This document shows positions 4,970-17,978 of a stretch of 55,055 nt of DNA, one piece after another. Location of the stretch: UHGV virus genome UHGV-0209657; one strand, written 5' to 3'. The notes under the pieces were generated by a model. It had not been told where the DNA came from, made no database searches, and worked only from the letters and a program-made list of their open reading frames with translations. Position 1 is the stretch's first letter. The number at the start of each line of letters is the position of its first letter. The translations under genes and the position numbers were made by a program. Source of the stretch: a virus.

Positions 4970-5617
4970 TTATGGCAGGTTTACGATCTTCGCATCAACC
5001 ACCACGCCTATAATTTTTGATTCTGGATTCATAGGGATTGGCGGATACAGCGGATTGAGCGAACGTAAAAGCCTTTGACCTCCATCAATAATCAACTGTT
5101 TAAACGTCGGTATCTGCCCTTCCTCAAGCTGGGCTATAACCAGTTTGCCGTCAATAGCTGGCGCGTGCGGGTCAACAAGTATCATCGTCCCCGCCGGGAT
5201 GCTCAACCCCTGCGGCGCGTTCATTGATTCACCTTTGGCAACCAGCCAGTAACTATCATCTGAACAAATAACGCTAGTCGTAACGTGTGGTAATGCTGAT
5301 CGCCTTGTGTCATCCATATTGTTTACTGTGTCCTTCCAGTCAATAACCGGGTAACTACCTAAATCACGCGGCGGTGCGGCCTGAAGTGTATTAGAAACAG
5401 AATCATCAATGACCATACCATCATGTGTAACAGTGAACTGCCGACGACCAAGCGCCCGCATAATCCGCGCAATATCTTCAAGATTTGGCTCGCGGCGACC
5501 GTTCAGCCAGTGTGACAGGCCGCCTTTAGTTATCCCCATGAGATCTGCGAGTGAATCCTGACTCATGCCCTGCGCCCGCATGAGCTGCTTTGCTAAGTCA
5601 TACCATTTTGTTTTCAT
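4970..5617 (-). CDS. cI: CI-like repressor (HTH plus S24 LexA-type autopeptidase domain)
   Basis: N-terminal HTH, C-terminal GESM Ser motif and downstream Lys; divergent from rightward operon. Confidence 0.85.
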   Translation of the reverse strand: MKTKWYDLAKQLMRAQGMSQDSLADLMGITKGGLSHWLNGRREPNLEDIARIMRALGRRQFTVTHDGMVIDDSVSNTLQAAPPRDLGSYPVIDWKDTVNNMDDTRRSALPHVTTSVICSDDSYWLVAKGESMNAPQGLSIPAGTMILVDPHAPAIDGKLVIAQLEEGQIPTFKQLIIDGGQRLLRSLNPLYPPIPMNPESKIIGVVVDAKIVNLP

Positions 5618-5741: not shown

Positions 5742-5922
5742 GAAAAAGATAACTGAAGGCACAAAAAGGCACTTACCTTATGCTCTTTAAAAATCCGGTG
5801 TCGCTGCGAAGCGAAAAACAAATATCACGCAACGGCGGGATCTGTTGAGCGGTCAGTCACTGCTATCTAATGCTAATGGGATGCCCGCCCGCGCGTTCAC
5901 TCTAACCATAGGAGAAAATGCG

Positions 5923-6180
5923 ATGAGTATGAACATGATTAGTAAAGCATGGAACGTAAAACTTAATAGCCCGATTCAAAAACTTGTCTTAATGGCTCTG
6001 GCTGAAAAGGCAGATAACAAAGGACGGGTACATGATGCATCACGCAAAGAAGTAGCCGCAATGTGTGAACTTCCTGTTCATACGGTACATGATGCCTTCG
6101 CCGCGTTAATGGATAAAGGATTTGTTTGTCGTCTTGATGCATTCAGTGATGTCTATGTAGTGATGTTGCCGGAGGGATGA
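5923..6180 (+). CDS. small HTH DNA-binding protein (Cro/CII position)
   Basis: ATG at 5923 with GGAG RBS (listed start 5845 is non-ATG); helix-turn-helix-like segment; first gene of rightward operon. Confidence 0.5.
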   Translation: MSMNMISKAWNVKLNSPIQKLVLMALAEKADNKGRVHDASRKEVAAMCELPVHTVHDAFAALMDKGFVCRLDAFSDVYVVMLPEG

Positions 6181-6183
6181 TCT

Positions 6184-7230
6184 ATGAAGTGGTTTAAGCA
6201 TGACAGCGATGCGAACCGCGATGAAAAACTTCAAAACGTTTTGTTAGATTATGGCCTGGAAGGGTACGGGCTTTATTGGTATTGCCTCGAACTAATAACT
6301 TATGACGTAGATCAGCACAATCTGAATTTTGACCTACGACATGACGCGAGAATCATTGCGCGAAACGTCGGATCTACTGAAAAACGTATAGAAGAAATGA
6401 TGAAATACTTCATCGAAATTGGTTTGTTCGAATGTTCTCAAGGCCACATAACTTGCCTAAAGTTATTAAAAAGGCTGGACCAATCAATGACTTCTAAGAG
6501 CGCTTATAGGGCTGCTATAAACACAGCGAAGGAGCAATTAAAATTAGAGAAGTTAATCAATCCAACACCAAAAGGTCATGATAGGGTCATGACCGGGTCA
6601 GGAAAGGGTCATGAATTAGAAGTAGAAGAAGAAAGAGAAAAAGATATATACACTTCGTGTATTAGCGAAAATGGACAAAAAACGGTCAATCAGGATGGCG
6701 TAAACGAAGCGGCATTGCGTTGCTTGGCCTTCTACAACGACAAAGCTGGATGCAAGTGTCGTGATGCTAAGCCATTTATCGAACTACTGACAGAAACAAA
6801 AACACGTAAGGCATACACGGAGGATGAGATCACATTAGTAATCGAATGGGCTTTGACGCAATGGCGCAGCCGTGGTGGAACACCTAAGCCTATCAACATT
6901 TGCCGGGTAACTAAATTCGATGGGTATCTGGCTGACGCTGAGCAATGGCGCAAGCTATCAGCTACTGTAAACGCTGCCGACGTGGTGGAAGCATTTAACA
7001 GCACGTTTGACGGCCTGTTACCACCTGCCGAACTGGATCGGGATCTTGAACGCAAGATCTATGCGTTCACTGACTACCTGAAAGACAAAAGCATTAACGG
7101 CTTTGTCGCCTACTTCGAAACGTTCAAAAACACGGCTTCAGATTTTTACTTCGGCAATGGCTTCACTGCGACACTTGATTTCCTGCTTAAACCAAAAACG
7201 CTACGTGATACGCGCGCTGGCGCTCTTTGA
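6184..7230 (+). CDS. replication initiation / replisome organiser protein
   Basis: N-terminus MKWFKHDSDANRDEKL...GLEGYGLYWYCLE matches recalled DUF4373 replication N-domain; GGAGGG RBS; upstream of helicase. Confidence 0.7.
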   Translation: MKWFKHDSDANRDEKLQNVLLDYGLEGYGLYWYCLELITYDVDQHNLNFDLRHDARIIARNVGSTEKRIEEMMKYFIEIGLFECSQGHITCLKLLKRLDQSMTSKSAYRAAINTAKEQLKLEKLINPTPKGHDRVMTGSGKGHELEVEEEREKDIYTSCISENGQKTVNQDGVNEAALRCLAFYNDKAGCKCRDAKPFIELLTETKTRKAYTEDEITLVIEWALTQWRSRGGTPKPINICRVTKFDGYLADAEQWRKLSATVNAADVVEAFNSTFDGLLPPAELDRDLERKIYAFTDYLKDKSINGFVAYFETFKNTASDFYFGNGFTATLDFLLKPKTLRDTRAGAL

Positions 7231-7363
7231 CCAACCACGATCCGCAAAAATCCAAAATTACCCACAAAACAACCTCACCAGCGAGCTAAATCGCATGTGG
7301 TGCTACACTTGCTTACCTTTTTGCGATTAGCTCGTTAGAGAGCGTTACAGAGAGGATTTTAAA

Positions 7364-7465
7364 ATGGATAGTAAACACGTTTTCGCCCTGGCTTTCGCCA
7401 TAGCTGCGGCAATAGATGTTAACGTCGTTTTGTTCGGCGGTTTGTACCTTCTCGTTAATCCATAA
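7364..7465 (+). CDS. small hydrophobic peptide (33 aa, MDSKHVFALAFAIAAAIDVNVVLFGGLYLLVNP)
   Basis: ATG micro-ORF with GAGAGGA RBS; below ORF-track cutoff. Confidence 0.25.
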   Translation: MDSKHVFALAFAIAAAIDVNVVLFGGLYLLVNP

Positions 7466-7618
7466 CCTACCTACCAGTCTGTAAACCGAAAATTAGCCAC
7501 CTGATAGCGTCTCTGGCGCAATAAGACACTGCAACCTGTGCAAACGGGTTACGCGGTGGGATTTTTGCGTTGTAGCGCGTCTGAGGCGTTATATAGAAAA
7601 TTAATAAAGGAGGTATAT

Positions 7619-8674
7619 GTGATTGCTACTTATCATATGAAACTCAATTGTAAGGACACGCAATTACTGTCTGTTAATAATCTGGTTTCTGAACTTGAAA
7701 TTGATAGACTTAAATCATTTGTTAAATACTCTGATCTTTACGGATTTGAGGAATACAAGGATTTTATTGTTGATGGTGATGATGTGTATATCACACCCAT
7801 AACGTTTATTAGATTCGTTACACCTGGTAAATATAGACATTATGAATATAATGAAAAATGGGTTAAGCCAGTTATTGAATCTTGTGGATTAGTTGACTTG
7901 CAAGATATCTTTAATAAATATTCAAATAACACCAAAAAAGATAGTCCTTATGCTTATAATTATATTTTATGGTGTAACAATTATGTTGAAACGAGTGATA
8001 CTCCTGGGCGATGTTCTGTGTATGTGTCAAAAGAAGATGCTGAAAAGTACAAAAAATGGTTGTTCGTCACTCGCGGAGTATCAATAGAAAAGCTATGGGT
8101 AAGGTTGTTCCATTCAAGCGATATTGCAGATCCAGATGCGTTTTTAACTGAACACCTCAATAATGATGAGTTTACCATTGATTTAAATATTGAATATTTT
8201 ATAGTTAAAACAAATTATGGGTATGAAAGATATATTAGCGATAAGATAGCAGAAAAGTATCATGCATGGGGTGAAAATAAAGGTCTTAATAATAATTTTG
8301 AATGCGGGAATTATAACGACATAGAAAACTTTATTGAATTAAAAAGCGATAAAAATGTAATTGAAGAAATAAAAAAGGAGTACGACTCGAAATTATCAGA
8401 AATGAGAGATAATTGTAAAAATATGATTAGGAAGCGTTATGAACATGCTGGCTTAACTATGTATGAAAAACTAAAAGGAGTTAAATTAATAAGGCAATAT
8501 CCTGTTGATGTTGCTGGCAATAAGTATTTTATTGATGGCTACGATCCTGTGAATAACGTTGCTGTAGAAATTGATGAGTCACATCACAAACGGCAAGTAA
8601 AAAGCGATGCGATAAGACAAAAACGCATTGAAGATTATTTGGGGTGCAAGTTTTTCCGTTGTGCTATATCCTAA
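7619..8674 (+). CDS. AT-rich hypothetical protein with C-terminal DUF559/Vsr-like endonuclease-fold domain
   Basis: GTG start 5 nt after AAGGAGG; markedly lower GC than flanks; C-terminus YFIDGYD..VAVEIDESHH..D..R..LGCKFFR matches recalled DUF559 pattern. Confidence 0.5.
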   Translation: MIATYHMKLNCKDTQLLSVNNLVSELEIDRLKSFVKYSDLYGFEEYKDFIVDGDDVYITPITFIRFVTPGKYRHYEYNEKWVKPVIESCGLVDLQDIFNKYSNNTKKDSPYAYNYILWCNNYVETSDTPGRCSVYVSKEDAEKYKKWLFVTRGVSIEKLWVRLFHSSDIADPDAFLTEHLNNDEFTIDLNIEYFIVKTNYGYERYISDKIAEKYHAWGENKGLNNNFECGNYNDIENFIELKSDKNVIEEIKKEYDSKLSEMRDNCKNMIRKRYEHAGLTMYEKLKGVKLIRQYPVDVAGNKYFIDGYDPVNNVAVEIDESHHKRQVKSDAIRQKRIEDYLGCKFFRCAIS

Positions 8675-8710
8675 TGTATACAAATTGTAAACCGCAATGT
8701 ATACGATTAG
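8671..8710. repeat. palindromic element at 3' end of AT-rich gene
   Basis: CTAATGTATAC (8671-8681) and inverted GTATACGATTAG (8699-8710); AATGTATAC direct repeat. Confidence 0.4.
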
Positions 8711-8851
8711 TTATTCATTAAGTGGTTATTTCAATTTGCATAAGTTGTTGATTAACCCTACTGGCATTTTTTGACACCGTGAAATCCATGTTAATAAAAA
8801 TTAGTTATTTATGAATAAATACTCATTCCGCGAACCGGAGGTAATAACGTT

Positions 8852-9970
8852 ATGTCACAAAGAAAGATCAGCGATGAGGAACTGATCGCCGAGTACAACA
8901 AGGGGAAAACTTACAAGCAAATAGCAGAAGAATATGGAATGGCAAAACGCAACGTCGAACGCCTGGGCGCACGGTTGGCGAAACGCGGTTTAATATCCAC
9001 GCGTCGCGCGCCGGGCTTTGGCGTCAATGGTGAGTCATTGCTCGTCGATAAGGATGGCAATGTGATTATGCGCTGGATTAAAACAGCCCGTGATCGCGAT
9101 GAAATGGAAAGGCTAATGCAAGCGGCTTGCGATGCTTTCACGGAAGACATGCCACGCGCGGAGGCCGTGCCAGTGCCGGAAATTGATTTCCAAAAAAGCC
9201 TGGCCCTTTATCCGGTATTCGATCTGCATATCGGGGCGCTTGCTCATAAAGCTGAATGCGGTGAGAGCTACGACACCGGGATCGCTGAACGCGTGCTAAA
9301 TGATTTCTTTGACTACGCGGTAGGCGCAGCGCCGATGTCTGAAAAAGCTGTATTGCTTCTCGGTGGGGATGTTCTTCACACTGATGGGCTGTTGCCAGTG
9401 ACGCCATCAAGCAATCACGTACTTGATTGCGATTCACGCTACGCAAAACTTGTTTATGTGGCGATCCGGTCAGTCCGCCGTGCTGTAGGAAAGATGTTGT
9501 TAAACCACAAAGAAATCGAAATCCAGGTATTATCAGGTAATCACGATCAGTCGGGGATGATTTGGCTACGTGCTGCGCTGGCGGCTTTTTACGAAGATGA
9601 ACCGCGCGTAACGGTTGACGTGTCACCTGCTATCGTACACCACACACAGTACGGCAAAACATTCCTTGCTTACCACCACGGACACACCATCAAAAAACCA
9701 GAAAATTTGTTGTCTGCCTGCGTCTCTGACTGGCGGGAAGATTTCGGTAAGTCTGCGGCGGTTTATGCTCATTGCGGGCACTGGCACCACCAACGGTTGA
9801 TTGAATCATCGTTAGGCGTTGTTGAGTATCACGGCACGTTAGCGGGCAAAGACGCTTATTCAACGAATGGCGGCTGGCGGTCGCGGCGTCTGGCGGCGGT
9901 AATAATTTACAGTCCTGATCACGGGGAAATCGGGCGCTTTGTTTATTACCCTGAATATTCCATTTTGTAA
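8852..9970 (+). CDS. HTH-domain protein fused to calcineurin-like metallophosphoesterase (GNHD type)
   Basis: N-terminal HTH; motifs DLHIG, GGDVLHTD, GNHD, GHWHH in canonical order; ATG at 8852 with GGAGG RBS. Confidence 0.55.
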   Translation: MSQRKISDEELIAEYNKGKTYKQIAEEYGMAKRNVERLGARLAKRGLISTRRAPGFGVNGESLLVDKDGNVIMRWIKTARDRDEMERLMQAACDAFTEDMPRAEAVPVPEIDFQKSLALYPVFDLHIGALAHKAECGESYDTGIAERVLNDFFDYAVGAAPMSEKAVLLLGGDVLHTDGLLPVTPSSNHVLDCDSRYAKLVYVAIRSVRRAVGKMLLNHKEIEIQVLSGNHDQSGMIWLRAALAAFYEDEPRVTVDVSPAIVHHTQYGKTFLAYHHGHTIKKPENLLSACVSDWREDFGKSAAVYAHCGHWHHQRLIESSLGVVEYHGTLAGKDAYSTNGGWRSRRLAAVIIYSPDHGEIGRFVYYPEYSIL

Positions 9971-9988
9971 ACCGGAGGTAATGCCATA

Positions 9989-11404
9989 ATGGATTCTGTT
10001 AACTCACTGCGACAAGAACGAGAGTCTGCTGTGATAGGCGGACTCCTGTTAGGCGGGCTTACACCTAACGCGCAAGACGTTCTTGCTACGCTCGATCCTG
10101 AAGTATTCACTATTCCGCTATATAAGCGGGCTTTTGAAATTATCCGGGCGCAAGCCAGAAACAGAAATCTTATCGACGCGTTACTGGTTGGTGATGAGAT
10201 TGGTAATGAAAACTTTGTACCGCTAATGCAAACGGCGCGATCGTGCCCTTCTGCTGCCAACCTGAAGGGATATGCACAGCTACTACGTGAAGAGCACCAG
10301 CGGCGGCAGATGTTGGAACTCATCGACGATATGCGCTACAAACTGGAAACTGGGACACTTGAGGTCGTCAAAGAGACGATGAAAGATTTTGATTCCCGGT
10401 ATTCAAAATTAAAGGTAACAAAAGATCAAATTATCCCGGTGCTGTTGCGCGATGCGGTCCAGGAATACACGGAAGTGCTAAGTAAACGCATGGAGTGTGG
10501 CGTGAACTCTGACAACATCAAAACAGGTATTGACCCACTCGACGAAATGTTAGGCGGCATTAATGCTACTGATCTGGTGCTTATCGCCGGACGCCCAGGG
10601 TCTGGTAAATCGGCGTTGGCGTTGGCAATTGCCCGCGCGGCGGCTGAACGTCCATACCCTGGCGGCGAAGGTCAGCGGGTCGGCGTTTTGCTGTTCACGC
10701 TTGAAATGTCGCTCGATCAGATGACTGAACGTGCTATCGCTGGCGCTGGGAACTTATCAACGGATTGCCTACGTAATCCGGTAAAACTGGATGACGAAGG
10801 TTGGGCGCACGTCACCCAGGGAATGAGTGCCCTTGCCGATCTCGATGTGTGGATTGTTGACGCATCGCAGTTAACGGTCGAGGAAATACGCGCCACCGTC
10901 GAACGGATGAAACAGGACCATCCTAACCTGGGGATGGTAATGATTGACTACATCGGGTTAATGAAGCTGGCTAAGGCCGAACGTCATGATCTCGCCGTAG
11001 GGCAATTGTCGTGGTCATTGAAAATGATGGCGAAAGAGTTGCGCGTGCCAGTGGCGGCGCTGGCGCAATTATCCCGCCGCGTTGAGGAACGACCGAACAA
11101 GCGCCCGAACAATTCTGATCTGCGTGATTCCGGTAATCTTGAGCAGGACGCAGACCGGATCATCATGGTCTACCGCGACGGCTACTACAACGAACAATCG
11201 GTTGCCCGCGAATATATGGAGATCATCGTTTCAAAAAACCGTCACGGGAAAACGGGGACTGTTTACCAGCGGTTTGACGATAACGGCAACATCATCCCAT
11301 GCGACCAGGCCCGCGCGGCGTCCGCTTGCATTCAGTCAATGCAACAACGTCCGGCGGCAAGTAGATTCTCCCCACGAAACAGCCAGAACAACGCATCTTT
11401 TTAA
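9989..11404 (+). CDS. dnaB: DnaB-family replicative DNA helicase
   Basis: Walker A GRPGSGKS and DnaB C-terminal domain layout; 471 aa. Confidence 0.9.
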   Translation: MDSVNSLRQERESAVIGGLLLGGLTPNAQDVLATLDPEVFTIPLYKRAFEIIRAQARNRNLIDALLVGDEIGNENFVPLMQTARSCPSAANLKGYAQLLREEHQRRQMLELIDDMRYKLETGTLEVVKETMKDFDSRYSKLKVTKDQIIPVLLRDAVQEYTEVLSKRMECGVNSDNIKTGIDPLDEMLGGINATDLVLIAGRPGSGKSALALAIARAAAERPYPGGEGQRVGVLLFTLEMSLDQMTERAIAGAGNLSTDCLRNPVKLDDEGWAHVTQGMSALADLDVWIVDASQLTVEEIRATVERMKQDHPNLGMVMIDYIGLMKLAKAERHDLAVGQLSWSLKMMAKELRVPVAALAQLSRRVEERPNKRPNNSDLRDSGNLEQDADRIIMVYRDGYYNEQSVAREYMEIIVSKNRHGKTGTVYQRFDDNGNIIPCDQARAASACIQSMQQRPAASRFSPRNSQNNASF

Positions 11405-17535: not shown

Positions 17536-17732
17536 CGCAATAACTCCGTTTTGTTAATTAACTAAACAATTCTACCATTTTGTGATCTGTGTTACACTTT
17601 GGGCTTATACATAATGTATTTTTTGATCTATATCAACATACGAAATGATAGCTTCTGCGGTGATTTGCTCATCGGATGGGTGGATCATCACGAACAACAA
17701 ATGACAGTAAAACAAACAGTAAGGTGAATACA

Positions 17733-17978
17733 ATGAAAAAACTAATTGTTGCTTGCATCTTATCAGCTCTGTCTTTTGGTGCTTTTGCTTCTGTAAATTC
17801 GACAGATAAGAGTGATGCTGGCACTGCTCAATATGGTGATACTGGCCTTGATAACCAACGTTCGAGTTATTTCAATACTGACTCATGGAAAGAAAAACAA
17901 CTACAAGGTAAAATTATTGACAGTGAATGTAATTTACCTATCCATTTTTCTGGTGTAAATGATGGGTGTAAAAAATAA
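17733..17978 (+). CDS. small secreted protein with signal peptide (opposite-strand moron)
   Basis: MKKLIVACILSALSFGAFA signal peptide; AAGGTGA RBS; between J and tail fibre on opposite strand. Confidence 0.5.
   Translation: MKKLIVACILSALSFGAFASVNSTDKSDAGTAQYGDTGLDNQRSSYFNTDSWKEKQLQGKIIDSECNLPIHFSGVNDGCKK

Follow-up and report, generated by a model that had tools for sequence, protein, structure and literature searches.

A Vsr/DUF559-type nuclease cassette in a variable slot of the mEpimmI coliphage replication operon: a candidate free-standing homing endonuclease

The replication operon of the phage genome analysed here (a stretch of 55,055 nucleotides, UHGV-0209657, referred to as the window) carries an AT-rich cassette that encodes a 351-aa protein with a C-terminal nuclease domain of the Vsr/DUF559 type and an orphan N-terminal region. 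We put the chance that the gene product is a free-standing homing-type endonuclease at about even. Vsr-like free-standing phage endonucleases are already known. What is new here is the 255-aa orphan N-terminal module, and that one fixed slot of mEpimmI phages holds the same nuclease domain on three N-terminal modules.

The 55-kb window is the genome of a member of the mEpimmI group, temperate siphoviruses of E. coli that were described as Nus-dependent and non-lambdoid (PMC11893012). These coliphages are a prevalent group in the human gut. In the replication region, identity is 93% with MagusPhagus and about 87% with mEp515, mEp010, mEp554, mEp044, mEp021 and mEp013, and E. coli M15 carries a near-identical prophage. 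The genes around the cassette in the window are:

4970-5617, minus strand: LexA/cI-type repressor
5845-6180: HTH protein
6184-7230: Lin1244_N replication initiator
7619-8674, plus strand: ORF of the nuclease cassette, 351 aa
8852-9970: metallophosphoesterase-type 'DNA repair exonuclease' (phrog_704)
9989-11404: DnaB helicase

An AT-rich gene inserted into the replication module had been predicted from the sequence of the window, and both the GC profile and the cassette-free relatives bear this out. The GC content is 0.27-0.35 over positions 7600-8950 (about 0.31 for the island) against 0.46-0.55 in the flanks, which makes this the lowest-GC island of the whole window (mean 0.456). As the original prediction had proposed, the limits of the insert were set by alignment with relatives that lack it. 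In the cassette-free MagusPhagus the counterparts of window positions 7000-7580 and 8814-9100 are only 9 bp apart, and the insert therefore spans about 7581-8813 (approximately 1.23 kb); it is missing from MagusPhagus, mEp010 and five prophages. The predicted 351-aa ORF with its ribosome binding site (RBS) and GTG start was likewise confirmed, the start codon lying 5 nt 3' of AAGGAGG (7607-7613). All relatives have ATG at the equivalent position; the start codon at 7619-7621 is GTG in the window versus ATG, at the same position, in M15 and in loci L010 and L037-L041. Owing to this single A-to-G change the nuclease may be translated less in this genome. The parts of the cassette and of the adjoining DNA are:

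7581-7618, plus strand: cassette leader CTGAGGCGTTATATAGAAAATTAATAAAGGAGGTATAT with the AAGGAGG RBS; homology with all relatives stops at 7580-7593
7619-8383, plus strand: orphan N-terminal region (aa 1-255), a presumed DNA-recognition module
8351-8476, plus strand: long alpha-helix linking the two parts (aa ~245-286), from the AF2 model of the C-terminal construct
8477-8674, plus strand: nuclease core, Vsr/DUF559-type PD-(D/E)xK (aa 287-351, beta-beta-beta-alpha-beta), with the stop codon
8675-8697, plus strand: linker copy ATGTATACAAATTGTAAACCGC, arm 1 of the palindrome
8698-8840, no strand assigned: AT-rich element of 143 bp without ORF, within the linker and separate from the nuclease cassette

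The C-terminus belongs to the Vsr/DUF559 branch of the PD-(D/E)xK superfamily, as predicted; motifs, Pfam, PADLOC and the modelled fold agree on this, and a placement outside the fold was not found. The motifs YFIDGYD, VAVEIDESHH, D..R and LGCKFFR are all present between aa 303 and 347. The Pfam DUF559 model matches aa 282-339 with 21.7 bits, a small margin over the cut-off of 20.6 (E 1.9e-4), and the PADLOC model mREase_II, which describes type II methyl-directed restriction enzymes, gives 1.2e-8 and covers the nuclease part only (profile positions 37-101 of 294). RefSeq already names the M15 copy a DUF559 protein. When the profile of the domain family was compared with solved structures it reached the nuclease domain of AbaSI (5e-5, 30% identity) and PvuRts1I (1.4e-3); the structure of I-Bth0305I (3r3p) was not reached by this sequence profile. 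The AF2 model of aa 245-351 (pLDDT 94) has a helix of 41 residues (construct residues 2-42) followed by beta-beta-beta-alpha-beta. The core fold alpha-beta-beta-beta-alpha-beta is present, and the C-terminal end of the long helix, where the near-invariant E283 is found, is helix alpha-1 of the nuclease core. In structure the catalytic domain resembles the C-terminal catalytic domain of I-Bth0305I.

No variation at D306, E317 or H323 was seen among 35-39 family members, and conservation is at least 90% at E283, D319, E320, D330 and R333. We take D306, E317, D319, E320, H323 and D330 as candidate catalytic residues; the invariance of the catalytic residues makes an active nuclease probable. The order and spacing of E283/D306/E317/H323/D330 parallel those of E170/D196/N208/H213/D222 in I-Bth0305I (PMC3239194), a pairing inferred from spacing and not from superposition.

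The remainder of the protein had been called unrecognised, and it stayed an orphan in all searches. Residues 1-255 gave no match in Pfam, PHROGs, NCBIfam or PDB sequences, and a HMMER scan of 1.84e9 representative proteins with the N-terminal region retrieved its own cluster only; no NUMOD or HTH signature was seen in any of the Pfam, PHROGs, NCBIfam and HMMER results. The whole protein had no PHROGs match and a single NCBIfam match far below threshold (TumA, 12 bits versus a cut-off of 100). AF2 modelled the N-terminal region with pLDDT below 50, and the fold search with the full-length model returned nothing informative outside the C-terminus because aa 1-244 are of low confidence. The resemblance of KDFIVDGDDVYI to KYFIDGYDPVNN, together with the DNA repeat D1, raised the idea that the N-terminus is a degenerate second copy of the nuclease. 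This was rejected, as the profile score of -0.0 bits lies within the shuffle distribution. A divergent Bro-N or Rha domain, as found in sister cassettes, was rejected as well (hhalign probability at most 0.2%). There is a possible internal repeat, YVSKEDAEKYKKW versus YISDKIAEKYHAW, at aa 135-147 and 205-217 (nt ~8021-8059 and 8231-8269), which is marginal (z = 2.7, 11 of 500 shuffles as good). Comparison with the 78%-identical allele of other prophages (P0002, locus L010) gave a dN/dS of 0.086 in aa 2-255 and of 0.079 in aa 256-351, and synonymous sites are almost saturated between the two alleles (dS ~1.5). These ratios point to a real, constrained polypeptide in the N-terminal region and, by purifying selection in both halves, to a functional protein.

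The cassette occupies a variable slot whose limits are identical in at least 22 genomes, 7 of them with an empty slot. The left limit is directly 3' of the conserved ...GTTGTAGCGCGT, and the right limit, common to all relatives, is just 5' of the RBS of the exonuclease gene. Between these fixed boundaries the mEpimmI phages have at least seven types of cassette. In the phages and prophages examined, the contents of the slot and their carriers are:

Empty: MagusPhagus, mEp010, five E. coli prophages
Bro-N and KilAC/ANT: mEp515, mEp554, WCHEC025970
Ant or Rha proteins: UMNK88, strain 190
Bro-N with the same nuclease domain (mEp044_12), then Rha and ANT: mEp044
Rha-like with the same nuclease domain (P0016): L016-L018
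Zn-finger repeats with T5orf172/MUG113 (GIY-YIG-like): mEp013, mEp021, two prophages
Orphan N-terminus with the nuclease domain: the window, M15, L009-L013, five IMG/VR contigs

The neighbouring exonuclease gene is found in 35 of 5426 complete E. coli genomes and the cassette in only two of these 35, so the gene is neither syntenic nor conserved in related replication modules, as its description as an insertion had implied. None of the seven sequenced phages has the cassette with the orphan N-terminus; intact alleles were found in at least 78 database members and 5 viral contigs. Carriers differ in their replication initiator, Lin1244_N in the window and M15 versus HTH_36 in L010-L013, and the exonuclease gene of the window is 91.9% identical to that of a cassette-free prophage versus 87.9% to that of the other DUF559 carrier. 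The cassette is thus patchy relative to the backbone. A second polymorphic endonuclease site within the same operon is the gap between the exonuclease and helicase genes (window 9970-9989). It is without a homing endonuclease gene of the HNH_3-AP2 type in the window, and such a gene is present in four relatives, namely mEp515, mEp021, mEp010 and one metagenomic relative (L002 4787-5341, L003 5040-5543, L006 3489-4079 and L017 6329-6823).

The right limit of the slot is marked by a short linker, TATACAnnnTGTAAACCGGAGG, that recurs 5' of the exonuclease gene, the helicase gene and mEp044_11. Copies are located in the window at 8677-8697, 8816-8841 and 9957-9978, and also at position 3002 of L005 and elsewhere. 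In L010 and L038-L041 the stop codon of the gene runs straight into the linker and the exonuclease RBS. Since the linker coincides with the right limit of every cassette, it is likely the joint where cassettes swap. At the other side of the slot, the leader has its first ~13 nt in common with those of the Zn-finger/T5orf172 cassettes (mEp021, mEp013, L022).

In the window the linker encloses the 143-bp element, which ends in a second, mutated linker copy and has linker-like direct repeats at both ends; internal direct repeats of 16 nt are located at 8706 and 8800. The element was found, 91-94% identical, in L022 (E. coli LP-26-E1-261) and MLI107, where it lies 3' of a Zn-ribbon cassette unrelated to this one, and it is missing after the DUF559 alleles of L010 and L038-L041. 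It had no match in Rfam or in the phage collection. As it is confined to this slot, with occurrence in 4 of 5426 genomes and none in the phage collection, a widespread mobile element was rejected.

The original prediction also included a palindromic element at 8671-8710, seen as a possible substrate of the nuclease. The sequence is there, in the form of an imperfect hairpin (5+6 bp, one bulged nt), but its role as an element or substrate did not hold: it is not conserved elsewhere among carriers of the gene or of the neighbouring 143-bp element, and folding of 8660-8860 is no better than that of shuffled sequence (z = -0.85). With no T-run and no Rfam match in addition, a terminator, a target and an RNA element were all rejected. 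Arm 1 consists of the stop codon and the start of the linker, and arm 2 is the start of the 143-bp element. Because the linker and an independent element supply the two arms, the palindrome is a junction, formed by chance, that is real as sequence and has no meaning as an element.

The gene had further been labelled a moron, and in the sense of an independently transcribed unit this label is not upheld. The terminator scan of the cassette found none on the plus strand, and promoter-like sites (12 versus 7.7 +/- 3.1 in shuffled sequence) were not in excess, a consensus scan being weak evidence. The unique leader 5' of the start codon is only 36 nt long, and the gene is co-directional with the early replication operon. 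Elsewhere in the window a second AT-rich island (17676-17978, plus strand, GC 0.35) contains an ORF of 100 aa whose N-terminus resembles a signal peptide or that of a lipoprotein. The tail-fibre and tail-tip genes on either side run on the other strand, the classic layout of a moron, and the ORF may be the Lpp-type exclusion gene that has been studied in mEpimmI phages (PMC11893012).

The profile search collected 75 proteins in the family of the nuclease domain, mostly short (60-146 aa) and phage-borne, that stand alone or are fused to Rha, Bro-N, NUMOD3 or a Zn-finger; NUMOD3 is restricted to the distant relatives P0064 and P0067. Two members, P0007 (41% identical over the domain) and P0052, are each located between the N- and C-terminal halves of a terminase large-subunit gene in metagenomic phages (L019 3122-5889 and L031 2132-5067, respectively). 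The downstream terminase half of the P0007 locus has a weak intein-splicing match, and inteins are present in the portal gene adjacent to the P0052 locus. This 'fractured gene' arrangement defined the Vsr-like homing endonuclease family (PMC2677866), and the two split terminases match its layout and are new examples of it. A closer relative, P0024 (70% identical), adjoins the lysis genes of a phage with two HNH endonuclease insertions.

Of the functions named in the original prediction we favour the free-standing homing endonuclease, on account of the split terminases, the nuclease cassettes in the slot and the HNH genes in the next gap. The protein would be a modular site-specific DNA endonuclease, in which the lineage-specific N-terminal region of 255 aa binds DNA and the long helix (aa 245-286), which may mediate dimerisation, joins it to the Vsr-type domain of ~80 aa. 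The catalytic domain would cut DNA with Mg2+ via D306, E317, H323 and D330, plus E283 on helix alpha-1. The gene would be co-transcribed with the early replication operon, in the way that phage free-standing endonuclease genes often run with the operon in which they reside (PMC2988022). During mixed infection, or upon induction in a cell with a related prophage, cassette-free relatives would be cut at or near the slot and repair from the cassette-bearing genome would copy the cassette in. For related genomes that lack the gene the outcome could be gene conversion or local marker exclusion, as with the seg, mob and hef genes of T-even phages (PMC2988022).

Several observations are in line with homing. 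The cassette shows a presence/absence polymorphism at a precise site, it is patchily distributed relative to the backbone and across two initiator types, and it runs with the operon, with no independent promoter or terminator found in the scans. The relatives of its nuclease domain in split terminases, and others with NUMOD3, point the same way, and the purifying selection on both halves marks the protein as functional. The slot also holds Bro-N, Rha and Zn-finger proteins with nuclease domains (Vsr-type in the former two, T5orf172 in the latter), and the next gap has HNH-AP2 genes in four relatives. Other points argue against it. By sequence the domain matches DUF559 and PvuRts1I/AbaSI rather than I-Bth0305I, and its N-terminus has no NUMOD or HTH signature. 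Non-nuclease Bro/Rha-ANT cassettes share the slot, and the recurrent linker alone could allow cassette exchange by ordinary recombination without an endonuclease. No cluster of carrier-specific substitutions, as expected for an immune target, was found in the 680 bp to the left and 860 bp to the right of the slot. The two main alleles (dS ~1.5) are far more diverged than their flanks, which fits long residence as well as recent homing.

A role in phage-versus-phage competition or defence is the main rival, which we consider rather unlikely. The orphan N-terminus would then recognise some property of foreign DNA, such as a base modification, in the manner of the SRA domain of PvuRts1I and AbaSI, and the Vsr-like domain would destroy competing phage DNA to the benefit of the carrier rather than only for its own spread. 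The closest matches among solved structures are indeed the nuclease domains of the 5hmC-dependent AbaSI and PvuRts1I, and the PADLOC mREase_II match points in the same direction, as do the strongly purifying selection, the position of an AT-rich accessory gene in a hypervariable slot of a temperate phage, and the antirepressor-type (Bro/Rha-ANT) genes, tools of inter-phage conflict, that the slot also houses. However, for the abortive-infection or defence function of the original prediction the evidence comes down to how closely the nuclease domain resembles PvuRts1I and AbaSI, a match limited to a nuclease core of ~65 residues. No SRA-like or other reader domain was detected, the domain order is reversed, no own promoter was found that would allow expression from a repressed prophage, and domain relatives occupy classic homing contexts. 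A wider version, in which the orphan N-terminus is a new reader of DNA or DNA modifications, the protein a phage-borne exclusion nuclease and the slot a dedicated locus of inter-phage conflict, seems to us improbable. One Vsr-type 'warhead' could in that case be re-armed with swappable targeting modules (Bro-N, Rha, the orphan region), and GIY-YIG-like warheads and antirepressors could share the locus.

The position of the gene inside the replication operon, directly 5' of the exonuclease and helicase genes, would also suit an accessory replication or recombination factor that acts on the phage's own DNA, for instance one that nicks or processes replication intermediates together with the metallophosphoesterase-type exonuclease and the DnaB helicase. 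Vsr is itself a nicking repair enzyme. Alternatively the protein could regulate by binding DNA, its nuclease fold being of secondary importance, in keeping with the Bro/Rha/ANT regulator-type proteins among the other occupants of the slot. Either role is quite improbable. The phages can do without the gene: 7 genomes, among them those of the plaque-forming MagusPhagus and mEp010, have nothing in the slot, and elsewhere unrelated genes fill it. Viable phages with an empty slot make a housekeeping role in replication unlikely, and the invariant catalytic residues, which imply a probably active nuclease, also speak against these roles. Finally, the orphan N-terminus of 255 aa and its poor AF2 model might be explained by a decaying remnant or a mis-called ORF in AT-rich junk DNA. 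This is hardly credible, since a dN/dS of about 0.086 over both halves at dS ~1.5 effectively refutes it, and the strong RBS, the conserved start position and the number of intact alleles (at least 78 database members plus 5 viral contigs) weigh against it as well.

The closest known systems help to place the homing-type endonuclease that we favour. The Vsr-like ('EDxHD') homing endonucleases, which comprise I-Bth0305I, Hef of phage U5 and the 'fractured gene' ORFs (PMC2677866, PMC3239194, PMC2988022), share with it the free-standing site between conserved genes and the presence/absence polymorphism. They differ in that the N-terminus here has neither NUMOD or HTH signatures nor any homologues in the searches above, in that profiles reach DUF559 and PvuRts1I/AbaSI instead of 3r3p, and in the host, here a temperate E. 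coli siphovirus rather than T4-like or marine phages. PvuRts1I and AbaSI are the best sequence matches to the nuclease core and share its D...E-x-D-E-x-x-H...D..R motif, but in these enzymes the nuclease is N-terminal and the SRA-like reader C-terminal, whereas the nuclease here is at the extreme C-terminus, no SRA-like domain was matched and positions 102-294 of the mREase_II profile remained unmatched. They are also cellular defence genes, unlike this phage operon cassette. Compared with DUF559 (PF04480) and the Vsr very-short-patch repair endonuclease, the core is far smaller at ~65-80 aa, neither a Zn site nor intercalating Trp residues were identified, and a 255-aa orphan fusion in a phage cassette takes the place of cellular repair. 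The Bro-N, Rha, KilAC (ANT) and T5orf172 proteins occupy the same slot in sister phages and follow the same logic of a DNA-binding module plus an effector module, and the identical nuclease domain is carried on Bro-N (mEp044_12) and Rha (P0016). The N-terminus of the window protein is nevertheless unrelated to Bro-N and Rha by profile-profile comparison.

Should it prove to be an active endonuclease with site specificity, the protein would represent a compact (~80 aa) Vsr-type cutter on a wholly new recognition region. Such architectures are of interest both in nuclease engineering and in explaining how homing endonucleases gain new specificities. The slot is a tractable natural system in which to study domain shuffling and cassette exchange in temperate phages, as isolated sister phages with an empty slot (mEp010, MagusPhagus) and with an occupied slot (mEp044, mEp013, mEp021) can be crossed directly.
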